Origin: Candidatus Nomurabacteria bacterium
Lineage (GTDB): Bacteria; Patescibacteriota; Minisyncoccia; Phycocordibacterales; CAIZLB01
Length of the DNA: 64,000 nucleotides
Assembly: GCA_943356525.1 (NCBI GenBank)
Contig: CALRFG010000005.1
Coordinates: 2,921-66,920, forward strand
Reading direction: 5' to 3'
Shown in pieces: positions 7,087-50,465 of this stretch. The notes below the pieces were generated by a model. It did not search any database, was not told where the DNA came from, and saw only the letters and a program-made list of their open reading frames with translations. Numbering within the stretch: the stretch's first letter is position 1; each line of letters starts with the position of its first letter. The position numbers and the translations under genes are program-made.

Positions 7087-7394
7087 CTTTGTTAATAGTG
7101 TGGTGTTGGTAACTTAACTACACAAATCCTTTTTATTAAGCTAAGCTTTAAAAGTACCTAAAAAATTGGTATAATCAAATCACAATTTAACAGTCGACCT
7201 AACCCCTAAAAGCCTTGTGTTTCTAGGATATGGTTGCAAATCCGTCCAAAGTAAAGAACTCCTAGTCAGGGTTCACTTTGGACGGTCATATCTGGAAACA
7301 GGTATGGACACTCCCTACGGGGTTTGTCGACCTGGCTAGGAGCTTTTTACTACCTAGTCAGATCACAATTAATCATAAAAAACCGTCCAAATTT

Positions 7395-7777: not shown

Positions 7778-8311
7778 TTACTCACTCTCATAGGTTTCTT
7801 GTTCGTCAGATTGATCCATCATTTCCTTGAATGTTCCGTTGTGTACCATCTCAACTAATTTTTCTACCTCTTCCTCAGACATGTTTTCTTTCTCGGCTAC
7901 ATATGCAATATTCTCTAAGTATTCCATCTCTTCTTTCGTTAAAGCAATAACGTTAGGTATGCGAGCATGTGCATATGCTGGAGAATCGTGATAATTCCTG
8001 TCTTTCAAAGTTTCAATTCTGTATTTTCGGTTCATGTAATTACCATGATTGTTTTCAAGATAGAATTTGATAGCACCGAAGTGACCTTCTTTAATCTTTT
8101 TGAACAATGCAGACTCTGTAAGCTCAATCATACACTTGTGTCCTTCTTGTAATGCTCCATTTACATTGATTTGAAACATCTTATCGCTCCTCATCCAACG
8201 ATAGAAAGTGTTACGAGATATACCAACTTTTTTGGTCGCATGGTTTATGAAAGGGGCATCACGAAGAATATCGACGATATCTTGCTTAAACTTGTTGTGG
8301 TTGAGACTCAT
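7778..8311 (-). CDS. Phage-type HTH DNA-binding protein, terminase small subunit-like.
   Basis: ATKKVGISRNTFYRWMRSDKMF helix-turn-helix near the N-terminus and an acidic C-terminus. Its start overlaps the upstream ParB-MTase stop by 26 bp. This pairing is common in phage packaging modules. Confidence 0.4.
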   Translation of the reverse strand: MSLNHNKFKQDIVDILRDAPFINHATKKVGISRNTFYRWMRSDKMFQINVNGALQEGHKCMIELTESALFKKIKEGHFGAIKFYLENNHGNYMNRKYRIETLKDRNYHDSPAYAHARIPNVIALTKEEMEYLENIAYVAEKENMSEEEVEKLVEMVHNGTFKEMMDQSDEQETYESE

Positions 8312-18530: not shown

Positions 18531-19304
18531 ATGTTTTTATCAAATCACCATTCATTTACAATAGTAAGTAAAAAATCTTTAAAGAGAAAAGATGATTTAA
18601 TATTATCTCAGAATTTTGAAGAGGATGTTAAAGTAAACGTTAATGATGATGACAGACGCAATTTTCTAAAAATCTTAGGCGGGGCTTCGGTCGGTGCTGC
18701 TGTTTTATCTATGATTCCCTCTAAAGCCCAAGCTTATATAATTGGTAGTTCACCAACTGCTGGTATAGTAGGTGTTAAAAATAGTTTAAATGTCGGGGTT
18801 AACCCAGCAACAGAAGATGGAAACCTTGCAACATTGACTGCTAAAGATTTTGCAACAGAGACAACATTAAACACCTTAAACAGTAAGGATTTTGCAACAG
18901 AGACAACACTTGCAACCCGTGCTTCTGAAACTACATTATCTGCCATAAAAACTAATTCTGATAAGTTTTTATTTGATGTAGGTGGAAACCTTCTTACTGC
19001 GTCAACAGGAGGTGCTGCTGGAGCTGTAACAGTAAAAGACACAACAAATACTCAGATAAACCCAGCTACTGACGAGAGTATTTTATATCTTAGACGTATG
19101 GTTAAGTTGATGGAATCTCAAGCGGTTGTTGATAGTCAGATGAGACAGAGAATCGTAGTTGATATTATGCCCTCAGTTACTATTACTTCAGGTACTGTTA
19201 CAACATTAAACCAGATAGCTGGTGTTGATTCACGTTGGCAAATACTAGACTGGTCAAGACAAGCGTACAACAGTGGTATTAGAGGTAATCTTTTAAACTC
19301 TTAA
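18531..19304 (+). CDS. Tat-signal-peptide repeat protein.
   Basis: DRRNFLKILGGASVGAAVLSMIPSKAQA is a consensus twin-arginine signal. Tandem KDFATETTL(N/A)T repeats. Confidence 0.6.
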   Translation: MFLSNHHSFTIVSKKSLKRKDDLILSQNFEEDVKVNVNDDDRRNFLKILGGASVGAAVLSMIPSKAQAYIIGSSPTAGIVGVKNSLNVGVNPATEDGNLATLTAKDFATETTLNTLNSKDFATETTLATRASETTLSAIKTNSDKFLFDVGGNLLTASTGGAAGAVTVKDTTNTQINPATDESILYLRRMVKLMESQAVVDSQMRQRIVVDIMPSVTITSGTVTTLNQIAGVDSRWQILDWSRQAYNSGIRGNLLNS

Positions 19305-19307
19305 CTT

Positions 19308-22184
19308 ATGGCAATAACAAACAATTTAAAAAAACAAATAGATCTGCCGGTATGGGAATGGTGTCGTTTTGCACCTTCAGTAACTACAGCTGTTTCATCC
19401 TTGACGACTGGAAACAACTTGCTAAACCGCTTCTTGTACTATCAGGTATCAAACCTTCTCTATAGATATGATACTCACACTGATACATGGCATCAGCTGT
19501 CATCAACTCCAGCCAACACGCCAACTATCATGAACTCAAATGTTTTAAGCAACTCGGTAGGACATTATGGACAAGCTATATCAGGAGGGGTCAATACTAT
19601 ACAGCTTGCAGGACTTTCTGGACAAGTTTTGGTCGGATACAAAATACGTATATTATCAGGTACAGGTGTAGGACAGGAAAGAACAATAACCCAAGTATCT
19701 CTGCCAACTTATCATGAAAGAGGTGTTGTAACTACAACGAGTAGTACGCAGATAATCGATGCTTCAACAGGTATAGGTTTAAAACAATGGAAAACAAATC
19801 AGTGGAAAAATTATCAAGTTCGTATAGACTTTGGAACAGGTAGAACACAACTTAGGCCTATACTATACAATACACAAAACACTCTTACGTTTAGTGATCC
19901 AAACTATTTAACGGTAAACCCTTGGGCAAACACCCCCTTGATGGTTGGCGCGACTGCATCCTCATCTTTATTTGTTATAGAAAGTCATCAAGTTACTGTA
20001 AATACAAACTGGACAGTTCAACCCGACTCAACCTCAAATTTTGTTATTTTATCAGGTGGTATTTGGAATGTGTCACAAGGTACAGCATCGTCACCGTTCT
20101 TTTCCTTTATGTATTACGACATACTCTCTGATGTGTGGTATCAAAAATCAACTCAATCTGGTTTAAAAGCTGCAGTTTTTGGTGCCACTTCAGATCTTTC
20201 TCTTGAACGATTTACTGAGTTTGGGGGTGCTTTGTTTACAGAAACTGCTGCTGGAGGGGGTGCAAGATTTATTACTGCTTCGACCCCACTTATACCTATG
20301 AGTTACGCTAACTTAGAAATACGTATAGTTAACGGTACAGGTAAAGGTCAATCATTGTCTATTATTAGTAATACTGCCACACGAATAAATACTACCACCA
20401 ATTGGGATGTAATCCCTGATAATACTTCTGTTTATGAAATATGGAGAGATGTTAGTAAGATATTTCTTATAGGTGGAGGTGACTCATCAATGTTTCAGTA
20501 TTCGCAGACTAGTGACCAGTGGACAACAGGAAAACAACTTGATTACGGTCAATGTAATCAGTTAGCTGCTACAAAAATAGGTCAAAGTCCATTTGCCTTA
20601 ACGTCTATAACGAGAACAGCGACCGGTATTACTGGTTTGAACGCGACACCGACGGCCGGGGGTACTGGATATAATATAAATGATTTGCTTACACTTGCTA
20701 TTGGATCAGGTGGTATTGCTCGTGTTACTGCTATATCAAGTACCGGTGCTGTAACTGCGGTCACAATCGAATCAGTTGGAACAGGTTACTCTGTGACATC
20801 AGGTATTGCAACCACTGTTGTACCAGCCGGAGGTACGGGGTGTACACTACAGGTGACTGCTGTTGATTTTACAGAACTAGCTTTAACTCCCATACCTCAT
20901 AACTTTAAGGTTGGTGATACTGTTACTATGTCCGGAGCAAGTGGTACAGGTGCTGCAAAATTTAATGGAACCTACACAATCATCGGTATACCTGCTTTAA
21001 CAACAAATCTTTCTTTCAGTTATTGTTCTGTTGGTGATCCGGGTGCGGCAAGTGCAACTATAGCAAATTCACCATCTACGACTCAGCTTGTAGATTGTAC
21101 TAAAAACTGGACCGTAAACGAGCATGTTGGTAAACTTATCCAGATTTCAAATAATGCTGTTTTAGCAACCGGTCAAGTTAGACGTATTGTTTCAAATACT
21201 GCCACAACTTTAGTTTGGACATTGGCAGCAACCGCACCTGTAAACGGTTTAAATAGATATGTTATAGAAGATATAAAACCTTTTGGAACGGAGCGTATGT
21301 CTAAAGGTGAGATAACTGGAACAGAAGGTTTTGCAACTGGTGGATCGACAACAACTATCATTGATACTACAAAAGCTTGGGAGACAAACTATTGGTCTAG
21401 AACTGTGAACCGTAAGGTTCGTATAGTTGAAGGAACAGGTGTTGGTGCTGAACTTCCTATCACTTCAAACACTGCTACAACACTTACTTTTGCAGCACAA
21501 TCATTCACAGTTGATACGACAACTCGATATGTCATCATGGATACATTTGGAACTGCTACTGCTGGCTCTACTGGTGCACTTACTGATACTGCACAAAACT
21601 GGGAAACAAACTACTGGGTAGGGCGTAGAGTAAAATTTTTGTCAGGGACAGGACAGGGAAATGAGTATTCTATTACATCAAACACTTCAAACACACTCAA
21701 TTTTGCCGTTGCGACTGCACCAGATACATCAACTGCATATGCTATACTTGAGGCAACTCCAAAAACAAGTGGTTTACATCTTGATTGTATAGTAGGATCT
21801 TCCGATACGACCCTAAATAGCAAGTATGTGTATGCATGGACTGGATCAGGTACATCGGAAATTTCTAGATACAATATAAATACAGAGCATTGGGAATATT
21901 TGGCATATTTTCCACAATCGGAAACTCTGTCAACTGGTGCTATGTATTGTTATGATGGTGAAGATAGGATTTATTATTTACAAGGTTTCACAACTACGGC
22001 CAAGTTGATGTACTATGACTTGGTAAAAAACATAGTTGTACCAGCCTCTCAACCTCCATACGGTATGGGAATTTCAGTATCAGGTAACCGTATGGAGATA
22101 ATAGAAACAGAGGATGGTTTGAAATATTTATACCTGATGAGACAATCAGGTAACGAGATGTGGAGAATATTATTATACTTTTAA
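19308..22184 (+). CDS. Large (958 aa) beta-rich repeat protein with no signal peptide.
   Basis: At least six ~40-aa modules of the form W.TN.W....V.I..GTG.G....I.SNT.TTL.F. Separated from the upstream gene by 4 bp. Confidence 0.6.
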   Translation: MAITNNLKKQIDLPVWEWCRFAPSVTTAVSSLTTGNNLLNRFLYYQVSNLLYRYDTHTDTWHQLSSTPANTPTIMNSNVLSNSVGHYGQAISGGVNTIQLAGLSGQVLVGYKIRILSGTGVGQERTITQVSLPTYHERGVVTTTSSTQIIDASTGIGLKQWKTNQWKNYQVRIDFGTGRTQLRPILYNTQNTLTFSDPNYLTVNPWANTPLMVGATASSSLFVIESHQVTVNTNWTVQPDSTSNFVILSGGIWNVSQGTASSPFFSFMYYDILSDVWYQKSTQSGLKAAVFGATSDLSLERFTEFGGALFTETAAGGGARFITASTPLIPMSYANLEIRIVNGTGKGQSLSIISNTATRINTTTNWDVIPDNTSVYEIWRDVSKIFLIGGGDSSMFQYSQTSDQWTTGKQLDYGQCNQLAATKIGQSPFALTSITRTATGITGLNATPTAGGTGYNINDLLTLAIGSGGIARVTAISSTGAVTAVTIESVGTGYSVTSGIATTVVPAGGTGCTLQVTAVDFTELALTPIPHNFKVGDTVTMSGASGTGAAKFNGTYTIIGIPALTTNLSFSYCSVGDPGAASATIANSPSTTQLVDCTKNWTVNEHVGKLIQISNNAVLATGQVRRIVSNTATTLVWTLAATAPVNGLNRYVIEDIKPFGTERMSKGEITGTEGFATGGSTTTIIDTTKAWETNYWSRTVNRKVRIVEGTGVGAELPITSNTATTLTFAAQSFTVDTTTRYVIMDTFGTATAGSTGALTDTAQNWETNYWVGRRVKFLSGTGQGNEYSITSNTSNTLNFAVATAPDTSTAYAILEATPKTSGLHLDCIVGSSDTTLNSKYVYAWTGSGTSEISRYNINTEHWEYLAYFPQSETLSTGAMYCYDGEDRIYYLQGFTTTAKLMYYDLVKNIVVPASQPPYGMGISVSGNRMEIIETEDGLKYLYLMRQSGNEMWRILLYF

Positions 22185-22193
22185 TACAATATC

Positions 22194-23132
22194 ATGAATA
22201 TAGATTATCTTATACAATTATTAACAAATAGACTCTCAAAACTTGTTCTTACAAAAGATCAAGCTTTTTCCTCTGGAGATCTTGAGAGAATAAATACTGT
22301 TGATGGTGAGATACTAGATGTGCACAATACACTTTCAAAACTTAGGCTTGTATTAAACGTAGACGAGGCTGCAGCTGTATCATCTTTGTCTGCTTCACAA
22401 ATAGTGCAAAGGGGAATAGAGTCTATTTTTACACCAAGTATTATAAACGGTTCTACTGAAGTAATGTTAAAATATAATATAGTTCCATATGCTACAGATC
22501 CGTATCACGAGACTAAGATTCAAACAATATTAGAAAATATGGGAAGTATGGATCGTTATGATCAAATAGATACTTACTTGAGGAGAAGTACACCAGACAC
22601 CCCACTTACAGGTTTGATGATTTACAATTCTGCTATGAAATATAACGTAGACATCCGTTTGATGATGGCTATTATGGAACTTGATTCTAGATATGGAACA
22701 CAAGGTTTAGGTGCTAGAACTTTTAACCCTGGCAATGTTGGTAATAATGGTTTTGAGGAAAGAAGCTATGGTTCATGGGAGGCCGGGGTTGATGCAGTAG
22801 CAAACTGGTTAAATAATCATAGAATCGCACAAGATAATACAATTACAATTAGTCCTACTATTGAACCACAACCGTCGATTTCTTTCATAACGATTCCATC
22901 TATCGTTCCAGCTGTTTCCAGTATAGTCATAACACCTGATACCGCTAGTGGTTTGACATCGGCGGCCACCTCAACAGTTTCTTTTGACATAGCTAGTTCT
23001 ACAGAGCCTGTTGCTGTAACTTCTACGACAACAGAAACTTTGGCCATAAGTACAGATTCCATTGTCGATACAGTTACTATCGATATAGCAACAACAACTG
23101 ACGCTACTGCAAGTTTTACAGAATCAAATTAG
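22194..23132 (+). CDS. Putative peptidoglycan hydrolase-like domain protein (glucosaminidase/GH73-like) with a Ser/Thr-rich C-terminal tail.
   Basis: MAIMELDSRYGTQGLGARTFNPGNVGNNGFEERSYGSWEAGVDAVANWL weakly resembles the FlgJ/GH73 core. The C-terminal ~100 aa are T/S/I-rich. Low-confidence function. Confidence 0.35.
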   Translation: MNIDYLIQLLTNRLSKLVLTKDQAFSSGDLERINTVDGEILDVHNTLSKLRLVLNVDEAAAVSSLSASQIVQRGIESIFTPSIINGSTEVMLKYNIVPYATDPYHETKIQTILENMGSMDRYDQIDTYLRRSTPDTPLTGLMIYNSAMKYNVDIRLMMAIMELDSRYGTQGLGARTFNPGNVGNNGFEERSYGSWEAGVDAVANWLNNHRIAQDNTITISPTIEPQPSISFITIPSIVPAVSSIVITPDTASGLTSAATSTVSFDIASSTEPVAVTSTTTETLAISTDSIVDTVTIDIATTTDATASFTESN

Positions 23133-23169
23133 TATAGAGCTGTAGAATCGTGCTAATCTTACTTCATAT

Positions 23170-23901
23170 ATGGAAAAGGTACACGGAAAATACGAAAAAT
23201 TTTATCCATATTTGGAAGACTTAAAACAACGTTTATATAAAGGGGTTGTTCTTTTTTCTATTATGTTTTTTGTAGGTTTTTTTCAAACATCTATAATACT
23301 TAGATATATTATTTCAAATTTAAATATAAAAGATGTAGTAATAGCAGCAACCTCACCTTTTCAATTTACAAGTCTTGCAACGGATGTTGGTTTCTTTTTA
23401 GCTATTATTGTTTCTATTCCTTATTTTATGTATAACGTATATGCATTTATAGCACCAGCTATAACAAAAAAAGAAAGAAATTTTATATATCTATCAATAC
23501 CTGTTTGTTTGTTATTATTTACCTTTGGATTTTTGTACGGTTTTTTTATACTTTACTATACACTTCAGTTATTGGCCAACATAAATACAGGAATAGGAAT
23601 TCAAAATATTTGGGATGTTAGTAATTTTATAATGCAGATATTTATGACAGCAAGTTTTTTGGGCTTATTTTTTGAGTTTCCAATTATCATGACTCTTATG
23701 ATAAAAACTAATATGTTAAATGTAAAAACACTTAAAAATAAAAGAAGAATAGCCTATTTTCTAATATTTGCATTGACAGCTTTACTTCCACCAACTGATG
23801 GTATATCATTAATAGCAATATCTTTGCCACTTATACTTTTATATGAAGTGACAATTTTATTTAATAATAATAATAAAAATAATAAAATAAAAATATGTTA
23901 G
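23170..23901 (+). CDS. tatC: Sec-independent protein translocase TatC.
   Basis: Six-TM protein. It carries ATSPFQFTSLA, FIAPAITKKERNF (TatC F-x-x-P-x-L-x-x-E-R) and ALLPPTDGIS (TatC LTPPD motif). Confidence 0.8.
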   Translation: MEKVHGKYEKFYPYLEDLKQRLYKGVVLFSIMFFVGFFQTSIILRYIISNLNIKDVVIAATSPFQFTSLATDVGFFLAIIVSIPYFMYNVYAFIAPAITKKERNFIYLSIPVCLLLFTFGFLYGFFILYYTLQLLANINTGIGIQNIWDVSNFIMQIFMTASFLGLFFEFPIIMTLMIKTNMLNVKTLKNKRRIAYFLIFALTALLPPTDGISLIAISLPLILLYEVTILFNNNNKNNKIKIC

Positions 23902-24059
23902 GATTAGGAAACAGAGAAATAATAATATTAGCAATTATTTTAGTTTTACTATTTGGAGCAAAGAAAATTCCAGAACTTGCAAGAGGTGTGGGTGATGCAG
24001 TACGTCATATAAGAAATGGTTTTACAGACGAAGTCGATAAGGATGGAAAAAAGAAATAA
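23895..24059 (+). CDS. tatA: Tat translocase TatA/E family protein. 54 aa, below the ORF-track size cutoff.
   Basis: MLGLGNREIIILAIILVLLFGAKKIPELARGVGDAVRHIRNGF is the TatA TM-hinge-amphipathic helix signature (LLFGxKK(I/L)PEL). It overlaps the tatC stop. Confidence 0.75.
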   Translation: MLGLGNREIIILAIILVLLFGAKKIPELARGVGDAVRHIRNGFTDEVDKDGKKK

Positions 24060-24075
24060 TTCATTTGAATAAAAA

Positions 24076-24690
24076 ATGTCACACGTAAAGAGGATAGTTT
24101 TTTGGACAATATTGCTGATTGGGTCAGCGGTATTGTTTTATTTTTGGTCAACAAATCAAATGCTTATGATAAAGGCAGAAGAATCGGTTTACTCTGAACC
24201 TCAGACAGCTTTATCTGTGCAAAAAGAAGTTATAATCACTCCTAAATTTTACACCGTATCAACTTCAAGTTTTATGAAAATATTAACAATGAAAGATCTT
24301 GATTTAAATGAGTGGTCAAGTTCAACTCTCAAAATCAGTTCAACTACCATAGATTCTACAGATTTTGCTTTCAATTTCCCTAATGAAAAAAGTCTATTAT
24401 ATCAAAACTGTACTTACAGGGTAGAACTTGATTTTGGTGATAGCTTAAAACCTAACTATATGGGAGTTTTACTTGTAGATGCCGGTACACAAAAAGAGGT
24501 TAAATCAAAAGATAGTGGACTTATTTATTCATCAACATTCAAAGAAAATATTTTCTTGTGGAGTGTTGGAAATATATGGCCTGGAGAATATTATTTATCC
24601 ATACCGATGATCGAAGGTAAGGAGGTTGTAGTAAAAAGTAAAAAATTTATTATTGAAGAAAAACCTGAAGGCTATGTATGTAAAAAATAG
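24076..24690 (+). CDS. N-terminally membrane-anchored hypothetical protein.
   Basis: N-terminal TM segment, then a soluble domain with no recognisable motif. Confidence 0.4.
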   Translation: MSHVKRIVFWTILLIGSAVLFYFWSTNQMLMIKAEESVYSEPQTALSVQKEVIITPKFYTVSTSSFMKILTMKDLDLNEWSSSTLKISSTTIDSTDFAFNFPNEKSLLYQNCTYRVELDFGDSLKPNYMGVLLVDAGTQKEVKSKDSGLIYSSTFKENIFLWSVGNIWPGEYYLSIPMIEGKEVVVKSKKFIIEEKPEGYVCKK

Positions 24691-24728
24691 TTTTATATTT
24701 TATTTTTTTATCGTATAATTACTTCAAC

Positions 24729-26636
24729 ATGAAGACAAAAATATTATTTTCTATAATTATAGTTTTTGTTTTTACGTCTCTAAATGTTTACGCTGGAACC
24801 GAAAGGGTTTACTTGGGACAAACGATAAGAATAGGAGATTTTGTTTTTGAAGATGACTACACTCCAAGTACTGATGATTGTACTATTTCCATATATGACC
24901 CGAGTGGTGTACAGAAGGTAACTGAGCAAATAATGTTAGATAATGTTAGCGGTTGGCATTATTATGATTATACTGTTGGCATAAATGAAGTGACTGGAAA
25001 ATGGCCTGTTATTATGTCTTGCGGAAGTAATTTAACTCTTGATTTGGTTAAAGTTAATAAAGATTTTATCGTTGAGGTTGATACAACACTCTCAACTTCT
25101 ACCATAGCAGCTTCTGTTTCTACTTCGGTTTGGTCAAATCCATTACGAACTTTGACCGACTATGCAACATCATCCATAGCTGCTGCTATTTGGGGTTCAG
25201 CAAATAGAAGTCTTACCACTTTTGGAAGTTTAGTTTCTGATATATGGGCAAGCCCGACACGTGACCTTACAAGTTATGGAAATAACATAACCGCTGTAGA
25301 TGTATGGAATGCTGCAAACAGGTCTTTAACTGATTATTCAACTTCAAGTATAGCCAATGCTTCAGCTGATCTGGTTTGGAACAAGGCTTCTTCACAGCTT
25401 AACAGTATTGGTTCTATTGGTAAATTATTAACAGATAATATCGATGCGCAGATATCAAGTAGGGGAACAAGTTCTCTAACAGCTCTTGATGTTTGGAATG
25501 CTGGAACAAGATCTCTTACAAATTATTCTGAATCATCTATTGCTTCAGCTGCAGCGACAGCAGTGTGGGCAAATGGATCAAAAGAGCTTACAAATTACGG
25601 TAATGATATAACCGCAGCTGATGTATGGAGTGTTTTAACATCAAACCTAACAACAATAAATTCTATTGGAAAATTACTGGCTGACAATGTTGACTCACAA
25701 GTCTCAACTCGAGCAAATTTAACAAATCAAGAAGCTGGCTGGACAGTAAACATGTCTGATTTCACAACGGTTCAGACAGGTAAAACCTATAGAGCAAAAG
25801 TTTCTATTTTGAATTACCAATCTATACAAACAAATCCTTTTTCAACCCCAACGATAACCCTATTTGATCCAAGTAGGAATGTTGTTGTTTCAAACATTGC
25901 AATGACAAACATATCACCAGGTATATATGAATACACATATACTGTTGCAGGTACTGCAGAGCAAGGTGTATGGGAAGGTGTTGTAAATACTCAAGTTGAA
26001 TCCGGAAAAACTATAAATACAAATGATTATTGGCTAGTGGCAGGTTCACCGGCACAGGTTATTATTAACGGAGTTACGACATCAGGGCCTACTGTAACTG
26101 CAAACTTGACTGTAACAAACGAAGGTCTTGCTGGTTATGAATATCAATATGAATGGTGTGTTGTTTCAGATATAAACAATCCATGTGGTGGAGGTGATGA
26201 TGTATATAGAGGAACAGGGGCTAAGTACATAAATCCAGGTGAAGATTGGAATACTAACCTAACAGCTACTGTTACAACTGATGGGAATTATTATTTTAAA
26301 GTTATAGTTTATTTTGGGACTGAAAAATCTGGATCATCAAGAACATTTACTATGACAGGGGCAAATGTTATTACACCTCCTGCAGGTGGCGGTGGTGGAG
26401 GAGGTGGCGGTGGTGGAGGAGCTTATTCTTCCAGTGTGGCTGTATGTATGGGTGGGGACCTCAATGGAGATAAAAAAGTAAATACAGTAGATTTCTCTAT
26501 ATTACTTTCATTTTGGAAAACAAAACCACCGTTTAAAAATTCTTGTGTTGATATAAATAAAGATGGAAATATAAACACTTCTGACTTCTCTATACTATTA
26601 TCTCAATGGGGAACTAAAGGTAAAAATATAAAATAA
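24729..26636 (+). CDS. Secreted repeat protein with a C-terminal type-I-like dockerin domain.
   Basis: Signal peptide. SLT(D/N)Y..SSIA repeats. A Gly12 linker. Two Ca-binding dockerin repeats, DLNGDKKVNTVDFSILL and DINKDGNINTSDFSILL. Confidence 0.6.
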   Translation: MKTKILFSIIIVFVFTSLNVYAGTERVYLGQTIRIGDFVFEDDYTPSTDDCTISIYDPSGVQKVTEQIMLDNVSGWHYYDYTVGINEVTGKWPVIMSCGSNLTLDLVKVNKDFIVEVDTTLSTSTIAASVSTSVWSNPLRTLTDYATSSIAAAIWGSANRSLTTFGSLVSDIWASPTRDLTSYGNNITAVDVWNAANRSLTDYSTSSIANASADLVWNKASSQLNSIGSIGKLLTDNIDAQISSRGTSSLTALDVWNAGTRSLTNYSESSIASAAATAVWANGSKELTNYGNDITAADVWSVLTSNLTTINSIGKLLADNVDSQVSTRANLTNQEAGWTVNMSDFTTVQTGKTYRAKVSILNYQSIQTNPFSTPTITLFDPSRNVVVSNIAMTNISPGIYEYTYTVAGTAEQGVWEGVVNTQVESGKTINTNDYWLVAGSPAQVIINGVTTSGPTVTANLTVTNEGLAGYEYQYEWCVVSDINNPCGGGDDVYRGTGAKYINPGEDWNTNLTATVTTDGNYYFKVIVYFGTEKSGSSRTFTMTGANVITPPAGGGGGGGGGGGGAYSSSVAVCMGGDLNGDKKVNTVDFSILLSFWKTKPPFKNSCVDINKDGNINTSDFSILLSQWGTKGKNIK

Positions 26637-26647
26637 TATAAATAAAT

Positions 26648-27544
26648 ATGTTAATTCATCATAATTTTAAAAAAATAGTAAAATCAACACTCATTTTATG
26701 TGTTATTTTAATTTCTATTAAAAGTGAGGCTATGTCTCTGTATTTTGAAAAACCTGAGTCAGAAATACGTGTTGGCGATACTGTCATGTTAAATATCTTT
26801 CTAGATACTGAAAATATTGAAGTTAATGGGATAGAAGGTGTTGCAAAAATATCAGGTGCCGGAGTGGTTAGTAATTTAAATGTAGCAGGTTCTGTTTTTA
26901 GTCTGTGGCCAAATAAACCATCACTCTTAGGTGAAGAAGTTAGTTTTGTTGGCGGAACACCTTCAGGTGTGTTCGGTAAGAAGAATAAAGTATTTAGTAT
27001 TTTTTTTAAAGCAACAGAGGTAGGTAAGGTTAATCTTTCTATAAAGCAGGCCGACGTTTTTTTAAATGATGGTAAAGGTACAAAATTAGCCTTACTTGGT
27101 ATAAATGAAGTTTTAGATATTTCTAAATCAATCAATGAATCCAAGAATGAATTGAGTAATTTAATTATAAACGATAAGGTTTTACCAAATCCATTTAAAA
27201 TAGAATTGGGAAAAGACCCAAACATGTTTGATGGAAAATATTTTATAAGCTTTTACTCTACTGATGATATGTCCGGTATAAATAGATATGAAGTTAGAGA
27301 GAATAATTTACCAGCTGTAAGATCTGGTAATACTTATGTTTTGGAAGACCAATCTTTAAGTGGGAAAGTCGAAGTTAAAGTGATAGATAATGCTGGTAAT
27401 TTTACTATCAAAACAATAGACCTTAAAGAAAAAGATAATAAATATAATTCATATATATTATTACTAATTATTATTATTATTTGTATATTATTATATTTTA
27501 AGATTAAAAAAATAAGAAAAAGTAAGAAAAAAAATAAAAAATAA
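26648..27544 (+). CDS. Cohesin-like domain protein with a C-terminal TM anchor.
   Basis: Signal peptide and a cohesin-like beta-sandwich block (VGDTVMLNIFLDTENIEVNGIEGVAKISG...VSFVGGTPSGVFGKKNKVFSIFFKATEVGKVNLSI). C-terminal hydrophobic anchor plus a KKxRK tail. Confidence 0.45.
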   Translation: MLIHHNFKKIVKSTLILCVILISIKSEAMSLYFEKPESEIRVGDTVMLNIFLDTENIEVNGIEGVAKISGAGVVSNLNVAGSVFSLWPNKPSLLGEEVSFVGGTPSGVFGKKNKVFSIFFKATEVGKVNLSIKQADVFLNDGKGTKLALLGINEVLDISKSINESKNELSNLIINDKVLPNPFKIELGKDPNMFDGKYFISFYSTDDMSGINRYEVRENNLPAVRSGNTYVLEDQSLSGKVEVKVIDNAGNFTIKTIDLKEKDNKYNSYILLLIIIIICILLYFKIKKIRKSKKKNKK

Positions 27545-27551
27545 TATTGTC

Positions 27552-29348
27552 ATGAAAAAAATACTAATTATTATATTTTCCACAGCAGCTTTTTTAAGTA
27601 TATCAAATGCTTCAGCAGCTGACTTTCTTACAGGCTCGAATAAGGCAGAGGTAAGTGAAGGTGAAACTTTTGATATAAGTGTATATGTAAACAGCCAGGG
27701 GGTTGCTATAAATAGTGCTGAAGGTTCACTGTCATTTCCAAGTGATTTGGTCAGTGTTGTTTCAGTAAATAATGCCGGGTCTATATTTCCAATATGGGTT
27801 GAACAACCATCTTATTCAAACACCTCCGGCTCAGTTAGTTTTAACGGAGGAGTACCAAACCCTGGATATGCAGGTTCAAGGGGTTATGTTGCTAAAGTAA
27901 CATTCAAGGCAAAAAAAGCAGGTAAAGCTTCTATCGCGTTTGGAGCTTCAAGTATTTATTCTAACGATGGTTCAGGTACAGATGTTTTAAACAAAAAAAG
28001 TGGTGTATCGGTTTTGATAAAAGCTGCAGAAGCTACTCCTGTTGTCAAAGAAGAACCTCTAAAAGATGGGGTAATAGATGTAGATAGAAAACCAATAATA
28101 GAAAAACCTATCCCTATTAAAAGTGATGAAATTGTTGAAAATATAAATAATAGAGATACAGTATTGCCACCAATGCCTGTTATTTCATCTAAGGATTTGA
28201 CTGACGGAAAAGAATGGTTCACTACAAAAAAAATAATGCTGGACTGGGATGTTCCTGGGGGAGTGACAGCTGTTCAGTTTTCTTTCGGTGGTAAAGAAGA
28301 CGCGATACCAACATCAATATATTCACCGGCTATTAATTTTGCAAAAATATTAAATATTGCTAACGGCGTATCCTACTTCCATATCAGGTTTAAAAATAGT
28401 GCAGGTTGGGGGGGGATATTACATAAAAAAATAATGGTAGACTCCTTTTCGCCAGGAGATATTACGGGCACCTCAGTCTTAAATGATAAAAAACTTATAT
28501 CTCTTTCTGTTTACTCTGAAGATTTGCACTCAGGGATAGATAGATATGAGGCATATGTTGATGGAAAAAAGGTTGCAGAAATAAAAGGTGGTTTTGATAA
28601 AAATACTACTATAGATTTACCGTTACTTAAAACAGGTCAGAATAAAGTAACTATTATCGCCTACGATGTCGCAGGAAATAAAAATACAAAAATAATTGAC
28701 ATTAATTCTCCTGAAGCTGAATCTCCTCAAATAAAAATTTCAAAAATAGAAACGAAAATAGATGAAGGTAACAATCTTTCCGTTTATACATATCCAAATA
28801 TAGAAATAGTACTTTATATAAAAGATGAAACCGGAAAAGTAACGAGTTCTTCTACAGTTAGTGGTTTAGACGGTTCTATAAGTATTCCTATAGAAGCTTT
28901 TAAATCAGTAGGTTTGAAAACTTTATGGGTATCATTGAATAATGATTGTGAAGATATGTGTGTACTTTCTGAAAAGCTGACAGTACAAGTTGTTGAAGGT
29001 GATTTAACTCGAGTACCTAAAGAATTTTTAAGCATGATACGTAAAAACTATTCAGGGACAATACCTTGGCTTATAGCAATTATATTCATGTTACTATACC
29101 TATCTACATTTAAAAGAAATAAAAATAAAGATATTATCCAAGAATTAAATAAGGCCGAGATAGATGTATATAAAATATTTAAAGTATTAAAAAATGATGC
29201 TAAGAGATATAAAGCAATGCTTAAGAGAAATAAAATTGATATAGTTGAAAAAGATCAGGTTATTATTGAAAATCTGGAAAAAGATTTGGAAGAAGCAGAG
29301 ACTTGTTTTGCAAAAAGAATAGAGAAAATAGAAAAAGAATTGGAATAG
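27552..29348 (+). CDS. Cohesin-like domain protein with a C-terminal TM anchor and a coiled-coil tail.
   Basis: Signal peptide. Cohesin-like block paralogous to the previous ORF (GETFDISVYVNSQGVAINSAEGSLSF...YVAKVTFKAKKAGKASIAF). TM segment near the C-terminus. Confidence 0.45.
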   Translation: MKKILIIIFSTAAFLSISNASAADFLTGSNKAEVSEGETFDISVYVNSQGVAINSAEGSLSFPSDLVSVVSVNNAGSIFPIWVEQPSYSNTSGSVSFNGGVPNPGYAGSRGYVAKVTFKAKKAGKASIAFGASSIYSNDGSGTDVLNKKSGVSVLIKAAEATPVVKEEPLKDGVIDVDRKPIIEKPIPIKSDEIVENINNRDTVLPPMPVISSKDLTDGKEWFTTKKIMLDWDVPGGVTAVQFSFGGKEDAIPTSIYSPAINFAKILNIANGVSYFHIRFKNSAGWGGILHKKIMVDSFSPGDITGTSVLNDKKLISLSVYSEDLHSGIDRYEAYVDGKKVAEIKGGFDKNTTIDLPLLKTGQNKVTIIAYDVAGNKNTKIIDINSPEAESPQIKISKIETKIDEGNNLSVYTYPNIEIVLYIKDETGKVTSSSTVSGLDGSISIPIEAFKSVGLKTLWVSLNNDCEDMCVLSEKLTVQVVEGDLTRVPKEFLSMIRKNYSGTIPWLIAIIFMLLYLSTFKRNKNKDIIQELNKAEIDVYKIFKVLKNDAKRYKAMLKRNKIDIVEKDQVIIENLEKDLEEAETCFAKRIEKIEKELE

Positions 29349-29356
29349 GTAAATAT

Positions 29357-29394
29357 AAAACCACTTATATTAAATAATATAAGTGGTTTTTTTT
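29357..29394. terminator. Bidirectional rho-independent terminator between convergent genes.
   Basis: Perfect 14-bp hairpin aaaaccacttatatt/aatataagtggtttt, with an A-tract on one side and a T-tract on the other. Confidence 0.6.
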
Positions 29395-29405
29395 GAATCT
29401 AAAAA

Positions 29406-30038
29406 TTATTTCTCAATAACCAAATTTTCTTTAGACACTCTAACTTTTGCCATACTTGCAGAACTATCATTCTCTGATCTATATCCAGCTGTACAAACAA
29501 CAGTTGACGTCAATCCAAGATCTTTCAGGCCAAGTATTTCATCAAACTGTTTCTTATCAAAGCCTTCCATGGGAGTAGAGTCTATCTCCTCAAGTGCTGC
29601 TGTGGAAAGTAAGACGCCAAGTGCTAAATAAGCTTGTTTGGCAGCCCAAGTTGTTTTATGATCTTCAGAAAGTGATTTTAGTGTTCCTTTGATCATAGCT
29701 GCAAATTTGGATAACGATTCAGCGGAAACATTTCTTGTTTCCATAATAAGGTTTACATAGTCATCTACGCTAGCATCCCCCAGATCAGTTTTTACTGCAA
29801 ATACAAATAAATCTGAAGCATCTGTTATTTGAGGTTGATCCCAAGCTACAGCCTTTAATTTTTTACGAGTTTCAATATCTTTAACATGAATAACTTTATA
29901 TACAGGTAAACCGTAAGAAGAAGGTGCAAGTCTTATAGATTCTATAAGTGTATTAACTTGTTCATCTGATAATTTTTTATTTGTATCATATGCATTTGCT
30001 GCATATCTCCAATTTAAAGCATTTATTATATTTAACAT
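29406..30038 (-). CDS. Nitroreductase family protein (NAD(P)H-dependent, NfsB-like).
   Basis: ~210 aa. The N-terminal RYAANAYD...LSDEQVNTLIESIRLAPSSYGLPVY is a typical nitroreductase fold signature. Confidence 0.8.
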   Translation of the reverse strand: MLNIINALNWRYAANAYDTNKKLSDEQVNTLIESIRLAPSSYGLPVYKVIHVKDIETRKKLKAVAWDQPQITDASDLFVFAVKTDLGDASVDDYVNLIMETRNVSAESLSKFAAMIKGTLKSLSEDHKTTWAAKQAYLALGVLLSTAALEEIDSTPMEGFDKKQFDEILGLKDLGLTSTVVCTAGYRSENDSSASMAKVRVSKENLVIEK

Positions 30039-30455: not shown

Positions 30456-30510
30456 GCCTTTTAAATGAAGCTAGTTTTACATAAACTTGTTTAGCGAGTA
30501 TAATAAATAC

Positions 30511-31020
30511 ATGAAATCAGTAAATATAATAATTACAATAATAATTTTTATTTTAATCGGTGGAGGTATATATGTTTTAAATAATAATACCGGCACTGAA
30601 AGTATGATAAAAGATGAAATGCCAGGTGAGACAATGATGATGGAGAAAGATGCTACGATGTCTTCAACATCTGAAACTATGATGAAAAAAGATGATACCA
30701 TGATTATGGTAAAAGGTGGAAGTTATGAAGCTTACTCACCTGAAAAACTAGCAAATGCAGAGAAAGGTAATGTAGTTCTATTCTTCAGAGCAGGATGGTG
30801 TCAAACATGTAGAACCGTAGACGCAGATATAAAAGCAAATATAAAAAATATTCCTCCAAATCTTACTATACTAGATATTGATTATGATAAATCTTCAGAT
30901 CTTAAGAAAAAATACGGAGTAACTACACAACATACATTTATTCAAATTGACTCAAAAGGTAAATTTAAAAAATGGATAGGTGGATCGACACTTGACTCTG
31001 TTGTAGATCAAGTAGAATAA
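30511..31020 (+). CDS. Membrane-anchored thioredoxin-fold protein with a Met-rich segment.
   Basis: N-terminal TM segment. Met-rich stretch (ETMMMEKDATMSSTSETMMKKDDTMIM). FFRAGWCQTCR carries a CxxC motif. The ATG at 30511 is preferred over the track's TTG at 30487. Confidence 0.6.
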   Translation: MKSVNIIITIIIFILIGGGIYVLNNNTGTESMIKDEMPGETMMMEKDATMSSTSETMMKKDDTMIMVKGGSYEAYSPEKLANAEKGNVVLFFRAGWCQTCRTVDADIKANIKNIPPNLTILDIDYDKSSDLKKKYGVTTQHTFIQIDSKGKFKKWIGGSTLDSVVDQVE

Positions 31021-31032
31021 TTAAAACATAGT

Positions 31033-32733
31033 ATGTTATTACTTACAGTATCATTCATAGCTGGTATATTAACCATACTTGCACCATGTGTGTTACCAGT
31101 ACTCCCTGTTATCTTGGGTGGTTCCTTAAATAATAAAAAAGCTAATAAAAAAAAGACATTAATAATAATACTTTCTTTAGGAATATCGGTTATAGTATTT
31201 ACTTTTTTATTAAAAGTTAGTACGTTATTTATAGATATACCAGAATATACTTGGAAAATAGTTTCAAGTATTATAATATTGATATTTGGCTTGATCACTA
31301 TTTTTCCTTCACTTTGGGAAAATAAATTTATTGCAAAGTTAAGTAGAAAATCTAACATTATCCTAGGTAAAGGGGATCAGAAGAAAAGCTTTTGGGGAGA
31401 CGTGATAGTTGGTGTATCTCTTGGTCCCGTGTTCTCAACATGTAGTCCAACATACTTTATTATCTTGGCTACTGTATTGCCAGTGAGTCTTTTACTTGGC
31501 TTTATTTACTTATTGGCTTATACACTTGGTTTATGTTTGGCATTGCTTATGGTGGCATTGATAGGTCAAAGAATAGTTGATAAATTGGGCGTAGCAGCAA
31601 ATCCTGACGGCTGGTTTAAGAAAACTCTTGGAATAATCCTTGTTATCGTTGCTATAGGTATAGTTACAGGTGCCGATAAAAAACTACAGACATATATATT
31701 AGATAAAGGTTTTTTTGATGTGACTAAGATAGAGCAAATGTTATTACGTTCACAAGACGAAAAAAGTTCATCTGTAAATCTTTCTGGTGGATATTTGTCT
31801 ATAGCAGAAAAAGAAAAAAAATATAAAAGATTTACTGAGCTTGTTTCTCCTAATGGATACATAAATACCGATGGTAAAAAGATAACTCTTGAAGGTTTAA
31901 AGGGCGAAGTTATACTTCTAGATATATGGACATATACATGTATAAATTGTCAAAGAACAATACCTTATATAAATCAGTGGTATGACAAATACAAAGATCA
32001 AGGCTTTGAAGTTGTTGGTGTACATACTCCAGAGTTTGCTTTTGAAAAAGTTCAAGCAAATGTAGAAAAAGAGGTTTTAGGTTTTAAAATAAAATACCCT
32101 GTTGTTTTGGATAATGATTATCAAACGTGGAAGGCTCTTCAAAATCAATACTGGCCACGAAAATATATTATAGATATAGATGGATATGTTATATATGATC
32201 ATATAGGTGAGGGAGCTTATGAGGAAACAGAAAAAGTTATACAATATGCCTTAAAAGAAAGAGCGGAACGCATGGGTATAGTATTAGATATATCTTTAGA
32301 TGAACTTGTAAATATAAAAACTGAAAAAGGAAATGTAGGTAGTCCTGAAATTTATTTTGGTTCTGTTCGAAATGAGTATCTGGCAAATGGAAAAGTCGGA
32401 GTCCTTGGAGTTCAGGAGTTAAAACTTCCTAAAAATATTTTACCCAACAGATTATATTTTGATGGTAGTTGGAATATGACCTCTGAGTATGCAGAAAATA
32501 TAAATCCAGGAAGTGTAGTTTTCAAATATGATGCAAAGAATATATATATAACAGCAGGATCAGATCTCCCACTAGAGGTAGAAATATATTTAGACGGGCA
32601 GTTTTTAAAAAAGTTAATGATTAAAGATGCGGGTTTATATACCCTTATTGAAGGAACTGAATATGGACAGTATACTATTGAGATCAAGGTATCAAAACCA
32701 GGGTTAAAGGTGTTTACATTTACGTTTGGATAA
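31033..32733 (+). CDS. CcdA/DsbD-like transmembrane electron-transfer domain fused to a TlpA-like thioredoxin domain.
   Basis: ILAPCVLPVLPVILG (CcdA Cys motif) lies in a multi-TM N-terminal half. The C-terminal half has DIWTYTCINCQRTIPYINQWYDKY (CxxC). Confidence 0.7.
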   Translation: MLLLTVSFIAGILTILAPCVLPVLPVILGGSLNNKKANKKKTLIIILSLGISVIVFTFLLKVSTLFIDIPEYTWKIVSSIIILIFGLITIFPSLWENKFIAKLSRKSNIILGKGDQKKSFWGDVIVGVSLGPVFSTCSPTYFIILATVLPVSLLLGFIYLLAYTLGLCLALLMVALIGQRIVDKLGVAANPDGWFKKTLGIILVIVAIGIVTGADKKLQTYILDKGFFDVTKIEQMLLRSQDEKSSSVNLSGGYLSIAEKEKKYKRFTELVSPNGYINTDGKKITLEGLKGEVILLDIWTYTCINCQRTIPYINQWYDKYKDQGFEVVGVHTPEFAFEKVQANVEKEVLGFKIKYPVVLDNDYQTWKALQNQYWPRKYIIDIDGYVIYDHIGEGAYEETEKVIQYALKERAERMGIVLDISLDELVNIKTEKGNVGSPEIYFGSVRNEYLANGKVGVLGVQELKLPKNILPNRLYFDGSWNMTSEYAENINPGSVVFKYDAKNIYITAGSDLPLEVEIYLDGQFLKKLMIKDAGLYTLIEGTEYGQYTIEIKVSKPGLKVFTFTFG

Positions 32734-33043: not shown

Positions 33044-36000
33044 ATGTCTGAAAATAGTGAAAAAAAATATATAAAGGTTGAGGATTTTGTCGGAGCTACA
33101 AAACACGAGGTTGGTGATTCTGTAGAACATGCAATTGAAGAGTTGGATACCATACAAGCAAGAAATGAAGAAATTGCATTATTAATAGAAAGTGCCGATA
33201 TTCCCCTTGCTGATAAAGAGGCTTTTAGATCAGAACTTGCAAGTGTAGAAAATAAAACGTTATCCTTTAAAGAGAAATTTTTAATAAGATTAGAAAAAGT
33301 AGCCGAGACTGTGCTTACTCCTATTGCAAAAGGTATTGAAGCATACGGTAGAAATTTTGGAGAAAGTAAAAAAAAGATAGATGGGGTAAATTTTATACTT
33401 GAAAATTTAGTATGTGAAAATAAGGAAGAGTTGTTAGAAGATTTAAGGCAAAAGGTTGAAAAAAATTATTTGTATTCAATTCCGGTTCCAGAATTTCCAC
33501 TTGATAAAAATGGTTTAGAAATAATATCTTATATTAAAAAGAAAGATATCGGGTCTATGTACGATGTAGAGAGTATAATTAAGAAGGTAAATTTTATGCA
33601 CAAGCTGCATAAAAAAAGTGTTTCTTTACAAATGATAGGGTGTTTTGATCTGGATCATGATTTTTACAATAGCGATTCTGTATTAGAAAATAAAGATTTA
33701 ATAGCTAAGCTAATCTTATTGGACAAAACTGATTTCAAGCTTTATCTAAAAGATATTCCAATGTATAAGATAGAGAAATTAGAGCTTGAAAAAATAAATC
33801 TAATTATTCAAAATCCGTTTCTACGTATTTCATTTCACGAATCTTATTATCTAAATGTAGATAAAATAAATAACTATATTACCGAGGAAAATCTTAAAAA
33901 AATCAAGGATTTTATTAGTGGTCCGATGTATCCGAGTAAAAACATTAGTGAAATTTTTACTTTCGTAGAAAAAGTTTTTAATTTACCTAAAGGTGTTCAG
34001 GGTATTTGTGATTTCTTATATCACCGTAATGGTGGACAAATAAATCAGATATTGACTAACTATGAAATTGATATGCGCTACAATATGCTTAAAAACCTAA
34101 AAGAGCAAGAAATAATAATTTTAAACAGGTTGGTCAAAGAGGTTGACGTCTCAATGTGGAAAAAAGACGATATTAAAGAATATTTACAACTTAATGAAAA
34201 TATTTTTGATAGGTGTAAAGAGTTGGATATATATATAGGCAGTTCCTATCGACCTGTCAGTTTGTTTTTGGAAATAAGTAGTATGTCTGATGACGAATTT
34301 GATCTATTTAAGCAAATATACAATAAAACACCAGCAAAAAGAGTAGATCTTGCTTTAAAAACTTTTACTTCAATAAATGAATCGCTAACCTCTGAACGCT
34401 TTAAGGAAGTTATTTCGTTTATTGATAGGATTGGTGAAACACATAACTTAAGATTTTATATAGAAGATAATCGTTCATTAGCAGATCTGGTTTATTTTAT
34501 GGGAGTTGTGGAAGAAGAAAAAGATATTGATCTTCTAGACTTAATAGAAAGCGCCTTCGGAAAGTATACACTGCATAAATGTGCAAGAGATAAGTTTTTA
34601 CTTGATGAGATTTTGGCTGGATTCGTGTATGAAAGGTCGTTTGCTGTTCCGCGAATTATAAATGATCAGAATATGTGTTTACATACATTTCAAAATTTTG
34701 AAAAGGTAAACGGTTATCTAAAACTTAAAAATAGCAAATTTTCAGAACAAGATATTGAGACAATATATTATAATATTTTAAACTCGAATCCTAACATTTT
34801 TTTAACAGAAAATACTTTTCCGTTGACAGTTGAAATGAGAGCTGAAATAACAAGAAGTATTACCGGGATATCATCACCTGAAATTTTGAATAGATTTTAT
34901 TTCTTTAAAAAAGAATATCTTGACCATACTAATAATCAACAAGAATTACTAAACCGTTTATTTGATACGCTTATTGTAACCCAACCAAAAGAACTCTTAG
35001 AATCTAAAGATTTTCCTTTTACCGAGGAACAAATGCGATATGTAGAGATCTTTAAAAGAATTAACGATTCACCATCAAGGGAATTAAAAAATCTTTCTAC
35101 AGAAATAATTCCACTCTTGTTAAAAAACAATACAATAGAATTAATGCATGAGTATGTTTCAAGGATCGAGCATATATTTTTAACTAATAATATACCGATG
35201 GTAGGAAAGCAATATAAGGTTTTTGAAATATTATATGGAGATACACAATTAAAAAATGGGGTATCAAGAAGTAAAGTCGAGTCTTTGAAAAAAATGAATA
35301 ACCCTATTAAGCAACGATTAACAATCTTTAAGGATTTGATGAGGGCTCATATTGCATCAGCCGATAGTAATCTAATGCAATACTTAACTGCACTTAAGGA
35401 AGGTAGAAATGCTTTAGAAAAATTTGAAAGTGACACACCTCTTGAGGAAAATGAAAAGAAAAGTCTGAAGGCATTTATAAAAAAAATAAATATCTTAACA
35501 GGTCATATAGGAAAAGAATCTATTGTAATGGGAGATGATATATCTGATGAAGAAATGGCTCAGGAAATACGAGAACTGAGTACGTCATTGGGGGTTGAGG
35601 AAGGAGGAAGTATAATCCATAAATTTGAGAAATTTTTTCTAAAAGGAATAGGGATAGAAACAATAAATGAAGCAATTGAAATAATGAAGCAACGTAAGAT
35701 TGGGGCACATAATCGAAATGTTGAGTTGTCCATATCAGGAAAAATATCACTACAAAATGGTGATTTAGTAAAAGGTGTATCAAGTAATTATTTTGATACC
35801 TATCTTGATAAAGGTGTCTACGCGCCTGAATTTGTTGGTGCGCAAAGTGTCGGTGCAAAATCTGTAAGTAGATCAAGTGATGGTACACCGTTTGATACTG
35901 ATTTAATAATAATAGAAGATGATAAAACGGATCTAGAAGACAATCTCACTGGGTACGGTGATATAAACCTGATATTAAAAAATAAATCCCAATTTGAACA

Positions 36001-47071: not shown

Positions 47072-50465
<3,394 letters not shown>

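Follow-up and report, generated by a model that had tools for sequence, protein, structure and literature searches.

A three-gene cohesin-dockerin cassette conserved across Patescibacteria, a probable non-cellulosomal system for surface anchoring

The closest described systems are the surface anchors of cellulosomes, represented by OlpA, OlpC and SdbA from Clostridium thermocellum and ScaE from Ruminococcus flavefaciens, in which a secreted partner ends in a dockerin, a Ca2+-binding module of two repeats, by which a cell-bound cohesin captures it. A comparable docking is predicted, from sequence and structural models, for three consecutive genes, ORF1 to ORF3, located at 24729-29348 of the 64-kb stretch of DNA from a Candidatus Nomurabacteria bacterium analyzed here, hereafter the window. 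ORF1 encodes a secreted protein that ends in a dockerin, whereas ORF2 and ORF3 encode paralogous membrane proteins, each carrying one cohesin-like module. The cassette differs from the cellulosomal anchors in (i) the means of attachment, a C-terminal transmembrane helix, complemented in ORF3 by a cytoplasmic tail, instead of the S-layer homology (SLH) domains or sortase that anchor cellulosomal scaffoldins; (ii) the presence of a single cohesin per anchor, with two paralogous anchors always accompanying each dockerin gene; (iii) a non-enzymatic cargo in a non-cellulolytic bacterium of the candidate phyla radiation (CPR); and (iv) a similarity of ORF2 and ORF3 to the Pfam Cohesin family that lies below detection. 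We consider it likely that the cassette is a non-cellulosomal cohesin-dockerin surface-anchoring system of an ultrasmall Patescibacteria (Paceibacteria-type) bacterium; the recurrence of the trio in hundreds of related species makes it probable that these genes serve to hold a variable surface protein on the cell.

Cohesin and dockerin modules are also employed outside plant cell-wall degradation, as exemplified by those of Archaeoglobus fulgidus (2xdh) and Clostridium perfringens (2vo8 and 2jh2, which we take to be cohesin-like modules of a glycosidase/toxin type), and such non-cellulosomal modules were reportedly surveyed by Peer et al. in 2009. These modules reside on soluble secreted enzymes or isolated proteins, whereas the cassette is a fixed, membrane-anchored three-gene set conserved over hundreds of Patescibacteria species. 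In archaea, the membrane stalk protein SlaB holds the variable outer surface protein SlaA in a non-covalent manner; the resemblance is a functional analogy only, without homology, since the cassette attaches its cargo via cohesin-dockerin modules and gives no evidence of a lattice. Within Patescibacteria, the closest described protein is SEML1_0315 from Southlakia epibionticum, a dockerin-domain envelope protein with immunoglobulin (Ig)/fibronectin type III (FN3)-like domains, essential by transposon sequencing (PMC10633639). SEML1_0315 and ORF1, likened by description only, are both surface proteins of Patescibacteria with Ig/FN3-like domains and a described dockerin; the Southlakia host, however, belongs to the class Saccharibacteria, no cohesin gene stands beside SEML1_0315, flanked by an alpha/beta hydrolase gene and a tRNA gene, and PMC10633639 does not mention cohesins, its supplements holding neither cohesin nor dockerin Pfam entries. 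The open full-text literature searched contained no description of the cassette, the Southlakia protein being the nearest. Because automatic annotation already labels some members as cohesin-domain proteins, the domains are not new; it is the system-level pattern that appears to be so.

ORF1, ORF2 and ORF3 comprise 635, 298 and 598 residues, respectively, and are tightly spaced on one strand (+), the orientation of all features described below unless otherwise stated. Family hidden Markov models (HMMs) and a generic loop-pair scan disclose exactly one dockerin ORF and two cohesin ORFs within the window, and the relatives of the three proteins all occur in Patescibacteria/CPR metagenome-assembled genomes.

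The secreted dockerin-bearing protein ORF1 (24729-26636) scores above the cut-offs of both Pfam MG2 and Dockerin_1, and its family counts more than 200 matches in Patescibacteria, mostly combining MG2 and Dockerin. The protein comprises (i) a Sec-type signal peptide without a twin arginine (residues 1-23, MKTKILFSIIIVFVFTSLNVYAG; 24729-24797), harboring the sole hydrophobic segment of the protein at its N-terminus (residues 5-23); (ii) an MG2/Ig-like β-sandwich (residues 25-116; 24801-25076); (iii) a repeat region (residues 127-320; 25107-25688) with eight repeats of ~20 residues and the motif W-x5-R-x-L-T, located by regular expression at residues 135-300; (iv) a pair of β-sandwiches (residues 335-542; 25731-26354); (v) a flexible linker of exactly 12 glycines (residues 553-564; 26385-26420); and (vi) a C-terminal dockerin (residues 575-630; 26451-26618) consisting of two symmetric repeats, each a Ca loop plus a helix. 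In the alignment-based AlphaFold2 (AF2) model, with a mean predicted local distance difference test (pLDDT) score of 66.6, the β-strands of residues 25-116 reach ~88 and the β-sandwich pair 80-94, whereas the repeat region, predicted to be helical (residues 120-330), stays below 50 and the glycine linker is disordered. Pfam MG2 matches residues 30-95 with 38.3 bits (cut-off 32.8, E 1.8e-9), and Foldseek relates this domain to the macroglobulin (MG) domains of complement and alpha2-macroglobulin. The PDB fold matches of the β-sandwiches are generic Ig/FN3/MG domains; the PDB fold matches of ORF1 also include RbmA, and no catalytic fold appears among them. A non-enzymatic cargo, made of MG/Ig/FN3-type β-sandwiches and the repeat region only, is thus supported, and the "adhesin or enzyme" of the original prediction narrows to a non-enzymatic protein, the enzyme being dropped for want of a catalytic domain.

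The C-terminal dockerin belongs to the type-I-like class (PF00404): Dockerin_1 matches residues 576-623 with 33.7 bits (cut-off 22.9, E 4.1e-8), and the top PDB sequence matches of ORF1 are solved cellulosomal dockerins (2y3n_B, E 3.5e-5). The two Ca loops, DLNGDKKVNTVD from residue 577 and DINKDGNINTSD from residue 608, accompany two helices modelled with pLDDT values of 80-87. Across 98 relatives, the Ca-ligand positions are 94-100% conserved in both repeats, and D1, N3, D5, D12, the FSILL helix start and W20 are conserved to a nearly equal degree in the two, which makes the module internally symmetric. In classical dockerins, this internal symmetry accompanies a dual binding mode.

ORF2 (26648-27544) and ORF3 (27552-29348) are the short and the long membrane-anchored cohesin protein, respectively. 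Both display an N-terminal signal-like segment, a single C-terminal transmembrane helix and basic residues after it, and they are regarded as paralogs because an N-terminal block (30% identity over 115 residues, E 5e-15) is common to both, as is a second block of the Ig-like type (E 0.001). ORF2 comprises a cohesin-like module (residues 27-157; 26726-27118), recognized by BLASTP against the ORF3 block and by an ortholog profile; an Ig-like stalk domain (residues 195-262; 27230-27433) with weak OmpL47-type and DUF7743 matches, homologous to residues 318-384 of ORF3 and marked by the conserved motif D..SGI..YEV; and a transmembrane anchor (residues 268-286; 27449-27505; hydropathy 2.79) followed by the basic tail KIKKIRKSKKKNKK. 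ORF3 is built of a cohesin module (residues 21-155; 27612-28016), a Pro/Glu/Lys-rich linker, an Ig-like stalk (residues ~205-490; 28164-29021) with weak Big_7, Glucodextran_B and Ig matches and Big_13 in its relatives, a transmembrane anchor predicted by hydropathy and kept in position across the family (residues 502-520; 29055-29111), and a charged cytoplasmic tail (residues 521-598; 29112-29345). This tail of 78 residues is helical and highly charged, has no known homolog, and preserves in the family alignment the consensus KR.LT.EE...DLDEAE.Y..K.IE.IE down to ~27% overall identity; its presence implies that the surface assembly is connected to the interior of the cell.

The assignment of the ORF3 module relies on its AF2 model, on Foldseek and on Pfam matches within the family. 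The model of the block (residues ~20-156) is all-β, with a pLDDT of 95.1, and adopts the nine-stranded jelly-roll β-sandwich of cohesins; the 50 best-ranked PDB folds retrieved by Foldseek comprise nothing but cohesins, with a probability of 1.0 and TM-scores of 0.64-0.82, spanning types I-III and non-cellulosomal kinds, and including Coh-OlpC (4dh2), Coh-OlpA (3ul4) and, at ranks 16, 28 and 30, the modules 2xdh, 2vo8 and 2jh2 mentioned above. A profile of the ORF3 domain likewise finds cohesins best in the PDB (5g5d_A, E 0.0045). All 45 full-length relatives of ORF3 are from Patescibacteria, and several of them bear precomputed Cohesin matches or the automatic name "cohesin domain-containing protein". 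A profile of 35 ORF2 orthologs (A4) retrieves three significant PDB matches only (E 2.2e-5 to 1.3e-3), which are the ScaB cohesins from R. flavefaciens (5aoz_A, E 2.2e-5); from these matches and the paralogy with ORF3, we infer a cohesin fold for the ORF2 module as well. The architecture that had been read from the sequence, two canonical dockerin repeats after a Gly12 run in ORF1 and a signal, a cohesin-like block and a C-terminal transmembrane anchor in each of the next two ORFs, is hence recovered in full, and the jelly roll that had been anticipated is found in the ORF3 model.

The conservation of the triad was examined with one genome per species, by fetching 80 loci and analyzing them with HMMs built here; 73 loci were evaluable. 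A relative of ORF3 is present in at least 316 species-level genomes, and the dockerin gene is followed by the short and then by the long cohesin gene in 69 of the 73 evaluable species-level loci. The genes abut or overlap (median gaps of 5 and -20 nt), each cohesin pair is accompanied, within 7 kb, by exactly one dockerin gene, and the cohesin is always N-terminal, with the dockerin C-terminal in 66 of the 69 triads. Two of the four loci without the triad contain, respectively, a fused short and long gene and a three-cohesin expansion. Distant ORF3 relatives, at 27-34% identity, lead to four more loci with the same order, encoding a short cohesin protein of ~300 residues and a long one of ~580 residues or more; the dockerin protein of one of these loci shows a quite different N-terminus. 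In 138 of 140 cases, a short or long cohesin has its nearest neighbor within its own type, the paralogs within a locus being just 29% identical, and by this sequence comparison the short and long cohesins are two ancient orthologous groups.

In a library of 1.8 billion proteins, the cohesin family is represented by 9,864 clusters at E<=1e-3 and by 6,290 at E<=1e-10. The family list contains many natural fusions of the short and long anchors into a single chain (P0286 and P0290; another occurs in locus L058), in which a short cohesin, Ig domain and transmembrane helix precede the signal sequence of the long protein and the long cohesin. The same cohesin family includes P0289, a protein of 2,276 residues with nine cohesin modules and a C-terminal dockerin, i.e., a classical scaffoldin architecture. 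One genome, SRP285395_co1_491, encodes two complete triads, one with an MG2-type cargo of 963 residues and TatC upstream, the other with a Cys-rich cargo of 347 residues (L049 and L076).

From species to species, the anchors remain constant, whereas different cargoes stand in front of the dockerin. The dockerin proteins that are complete measure 304 to 1,057 residues, and those truncated by contig ends exceed 2,300. At least the β-sandwich part of ORF1 is common to 46 of the 69 triads; in the other 23, the cargo is unrelated to ORF1, including a Cys-rich class of ~350 residues and an FN3-like class, and the dockerin is kept in all. The classes of cargo encountered among relatives are the Ig/MG, the Cys-rich and the FN3-like one. 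In 42 of the 69 triads, the dockerin follows a poly-Gly linker. A conserved Cys pair stapling the dockerin, also considered as a family feature, was discarded, being confined to 23 of the 69.

The covariation of the partners was analyzed in 67 triads. Pairwise distances between dockerins correlate with those between the cohesin modules (rho 0.59 for the short and 0.54 for the long protein) and more weakly with those of the remaining parts of the same cohesin proteins (0.375 and 0.14). Controlling for the remaining parts, the partial r is ~0.51 for each cohesin module, a value reached in 0 of 500 permutations, whereas the reverse partial correlations are zero or negative. These values are suggestive, without amounting to proof, of a specific co-evolution of the dockerin with both cohesin modules; common ancestry and the poorer alignment of the control regions each have a share in them. 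In the ORF3 family, the invariant residues N54, W82, P86, F97, G99 and N138-D-G-x-G-T143 fall on model strands 3, 5 and 6 and on the 8-9 loop; the classical dockerin-binding face of cohesins is formed by strands 8-3-6-5. The canonical dockerin, the cohesin fold of ORF3, the conserved gene order and the co-evolution together sustain the view that the locus is a self-contained cohesin-dockerin set. The epithet "cellulosome-like", by which it had been introduced, can be retained for the docking principle only, as neither a glycoside hydrolase nor a carbohydrate-binding module (CBM) is involved.

In the mechanism that we propose, ORF1, a non-enzymatic chain of an MG2/Ig domain, a repeat region and two β-sandwiches, would be exported by Sec, with the Gly12 tether joining the chain to the symmetric, Ca2+-binding C-terminal dockerin. 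ORF2 and ORF3, as predicted type-I membrane proteins, would each lift one N-terminal cohesin off the membrane on a stalk of Ig domains, short in ORF2 and long in ORF3, the latter presumably reaching into the cytoplasm via its conserved tail. The dockerin would then plug, non-covalently and in a Ca2+-dependent manner, into the cohesin of ORF2, of ORF3 or of both, fixing ORF1 on the cell exterior as an adhesin or envelope component.

Several observations weigh against such an anchoring system. Pfam Cohesin (PF00963) matches neither ORF2 nor ORF3, even at E<=1, an NCBIfam scan of the two proteins gave no Cohesin match, and phmmer searches of the single sequences against the PDB returned chance matches only; of the Pfam check suggested with the original prediction, the Dockerin_1 half thus succeeded on ORF1 and the Cohesin half failed on both partners. 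Since 8 of 19 ORF3-type domain sequences do match Pfam Cohesin (best E 3.9e-10), we attribute this failure to a limit of sensitivity, the link of ORF2 and ORF3 to PF00963 being transitive only, through relatives. ORF2 orthologs match Pfam BatD more often than Cohesin (6 of 35 vs 2 of 35, the latter at E 0.0018). Mirror-tree correlations can stem from shared history and from uneven alignment quality of the control regions; the central 200 residues of ORF1 are modelled at low confidence; and the analysis covers 64 kb of the genome, so that further dockerin or cohesin partners may sit elsewhere. The similarity of the short lineage to BatD and cohesin alike, the missing Pfam score and the extent of the sequence examined are also what an explanation by other ligands can draw on, in which the cohesin-like modules would bind a glycan, a host protein or dockerins from elsewhere, and the adjacency of the genes would reflect the co-regulation of envelope genes only; cohesin-like folds with other roles are indeed known. 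We judge this explanation unlikely in view of the gene order, fixed in 69 of 73 species, of the co-evolution of the dockerin, which is specific to the cohesin modules and does not extend to the stalks, of the single dockerin gene within 7 kb of each cohesin pair, and of the position of the invariant residues relative to the classical 8-3-6-5 face. An envelope layer, S-layer- or canopy-like, is a possibility of greater weight, although still a doubtful one: the same parts would anchor a coat and not a host adhesin, with ORF2 and ORF3 as membrane stalks, like SlaB in Sulfolobus, and ORF1 as an outer, fast-evolving sheet protein. The near-universal occurrence of the cassette in the clade (69 of 73 loci, 316 species genomes and 6,290 representatives), the Ig-like cargo of variable architecture, the unequal height of the two stalks and the essential dockerin-domain envelope protein of the cultivated Patescibacterium Southlakia (PMC10633639) all agree with a layer; on the other hand, lattice formation or high expression finds no support here, a cargo of unrelated classes ranging from ~300 to more than 2,300 residues is unusual for a lattice protein, and the Southlakia dockerin gene does not lie beside cohesin genes.

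Two further explanations concern what the cassette does and how it is exported. A minimal cellulosome for polysaccharide degradation could be invoked from the cohesin and dockerin modules themselves and from the nine-cohesin scaffoldin P0289; it is nonetheless scarcely credible, given that ORF1-3 and the cargo classes encountered contain neither a glycoside hydrolase nor a CBM nor any catalytic domain, each anchor carries a single cohesin, and the host is a Patescibacterium with a reduced genome. A cellulosome was accordingly rejected for this locus, as ORF1-3 contain no catalytic or CBM domain. The export of folded ORF1-3 through TatAC, the twin-arginine translocation (Tat) components encoded directly upstream, is very improbable too. 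In its favor, 18 of the 69 triads, all with an ORF1-like cargo, have a TatC gene within 7 kb, P0160 is called as a TatC-dockerin fusion, and two relatives of ORF1 (L020 and L044) show a twin arginine in the signal region; yet the N-termini of ORF1, ORF2 and ORF3 carry Lys-containing, Sec-type signals that lack a twin arginine, such a pair is present within the first 35 residues in only 5 of 48 complete dockerin proteins, 51 of the 69 triads have no TatC nearby, and the obvious Tat substrate of the neighborhood is a separate protein family, encoded at 18531-19304. ORF1-3 were rejected as Tat substrates, their signals lacking the S/T-R-R-x-F-L-K motif. A phage origin was likewise rejected, with no PHROGs match for ORF1-3; in IMG/VR, none of 155 pattern matches encodes a relative of ORF1. 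On the domain, signal and PHROGs/IMG/VR evidence, respectively, a cellulosome, Tat export and a phage origin are effectively excluded for the locus.

The surface-anchoring system that we favor could also take a more elaborate form, which we advance as conjecture: an obligate 1:1:1 heterotrimer, in which two cohesins of unequal stalk height would clamp one dockerin, as the core of a Patescibacteria-wide envelope apparatus. Such an apparatus would be coupled to the cell interior by the ORF3 tail, would present interchangeable cargo for host attachment or as an outer coat, and would cooperate in some lineages with the Tat-exported 18531-19304 family. If true, both its cohesin-dockerin architecture and the CPR surface organelle that it forms would be of an undescribed kind.

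Patescibacteria (CPR) account for a large share of bacterial diversity; to our knowledge, every cultivated representative is found attached to other cells, and we know of little concerning their surface molecules beyond type IV pili. The conserved order, the thousands of clusters and the combination of constant anchors with swappable cargo therefore make the cassette a concrete candidate for the display of adhesins or envelope proteins. The cassette would extend cohesin-dockerin biology to membrane-helix-anchored, two-anchors-per-dockerin, enzyme-free forms, and the small symmetric dockerin and single cohesins could serve as orthogonal parts in protein-assembly engineering.

The cassette closes a close-packed block of nine genes on a single strand (18531-29348), with a terminator-like hairpin at its end (29357-29390, annotated over 29357-29400), 3' of ORF3, comprising a 15-bp stem and a T run; the following gene (29406-30038) lies on the opposite strand. 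The position of the cluster downstream of a Tat locus, as originally described, is confirmed, a gene for a 204-residue protein intervening, and the adjacency recurs in the 18 triads mentioned above, a frequency far above expectation for genomes of ~1 Mb, the size taken for these bacteria. TatC (23170-23901; Pfam TatC, 132.6 bits) is followed by TatA (23895-24059; MLGLGNREIIILAIILVLLFGAKKIPELARGVG...), the start of which overlaps the TatC stop by 7 nt and which, with 54 residues, falls below the 60-residue minimum of the ORF lists. We treat the Tat part as an accessory association, outside the core mechanism. The 204-residue protein between TatA and ORF1 (24076-24690) is an N-terminally anchored membrane protein with homologs in 5 of the 80 loci; because four of these sit elsewhere, directly downstream of the long cohesin (L011, L012, L022 and L043), the gene is considered a mobile accessory of the cassette.

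The 257-residue protein encoded at 18531-19304, an accessory neighbor of the dockerin gene, carries, after a long extension at the N-terminus, a Tat-type signal, DRRNFLKILGGASVGAAVLSMIPSKAQA, in which DRRNFLKILGG...KAQA combines the DRRNFLK motif, a hydrophobic stretch and an A-x-A site. The pattern [KR]R-x-F-L-K, mostly with KR, is found in 119 of 120 relatives, and the protein is, by its signal, a likely Tat client of the neighborhood. The family is CPR-specific, with more than 365 members, has no relatives in the PDB or PHROGs, and yields, as a profile against Pfam, weak TAT_signal matches only; a homolog stands beside the dockerin gene in 17 of the 80 loci, mostly in divergent orientation. 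The next two genes encode a 958-residue repeat protein with weak Kelch matches and repeated G-T-G-x-G-Q...SNTA motifs (19308-22184) and a 312-residue glucosaminidase-like protein with a Ser/Thr-rich tail (22194-23132). Both proteins lack signal peptides and recur upstream of TatC and the triad in L037, L071 and L078; it is a speculation that they may hitch-hike on the neighbor with the Tat signal for export. In L060, a glucosaminidase-like domain of the 312-residue type is fused to a third cohesin protein.

Just past the cassette, the window contains a gene pair for a membrane-anchored thioredoxin and a DsbD/CcdA-thioredoxin-like fusion protein (30487-32733), which adjoins the cassette in none of the 80 loci. 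The DNA of the window has a G+C content of ~32%, and contigs of metagenome-assembled genomes matching it include GCA_943359505.1; a promoter scan of this AT-rich DNA gave 66 sites where 57.5 are expected. At 47067-50703, a 23S rRNA gene of 3,400 nt, compared with a model of 2,925 positions, is interrupted by a group I intron (49960-50163) and followed by a 5S rRNA gene, with no 16S rRNA or tRNA gene in the whole 64 kb; rRNA genes that are unlinked and contain introns are a typical trait of CPR bacteria. A defence-like block includes a 1,100-residue PLD-nuclease/SNF2-helicase protein overlapping a 1,088-residue Eco57I/MmeI-type methyltransferase with a TaqI-like specificity domain (521-7086) and, on the opposite strand, a ParB-N-terminal/N6_N4 DNA methylase (8286-9659, -). 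A restriction-modification gene pair and a small ORF flank a match to the Rfam LOOT RNA family (7196-7324; 70.9 bits, gathering score 46.4). An ORF of 1,360 residues (33044-37126) has no Pfam match at E<=0.001. Another candidate large surface protein in the window, without a dockerin, is a 1,436-residue protein (54249-58559) comprising a Laminin_G_3 (concanavalin-like lectin) domain and a C-terminal PG_binding_1 domain.

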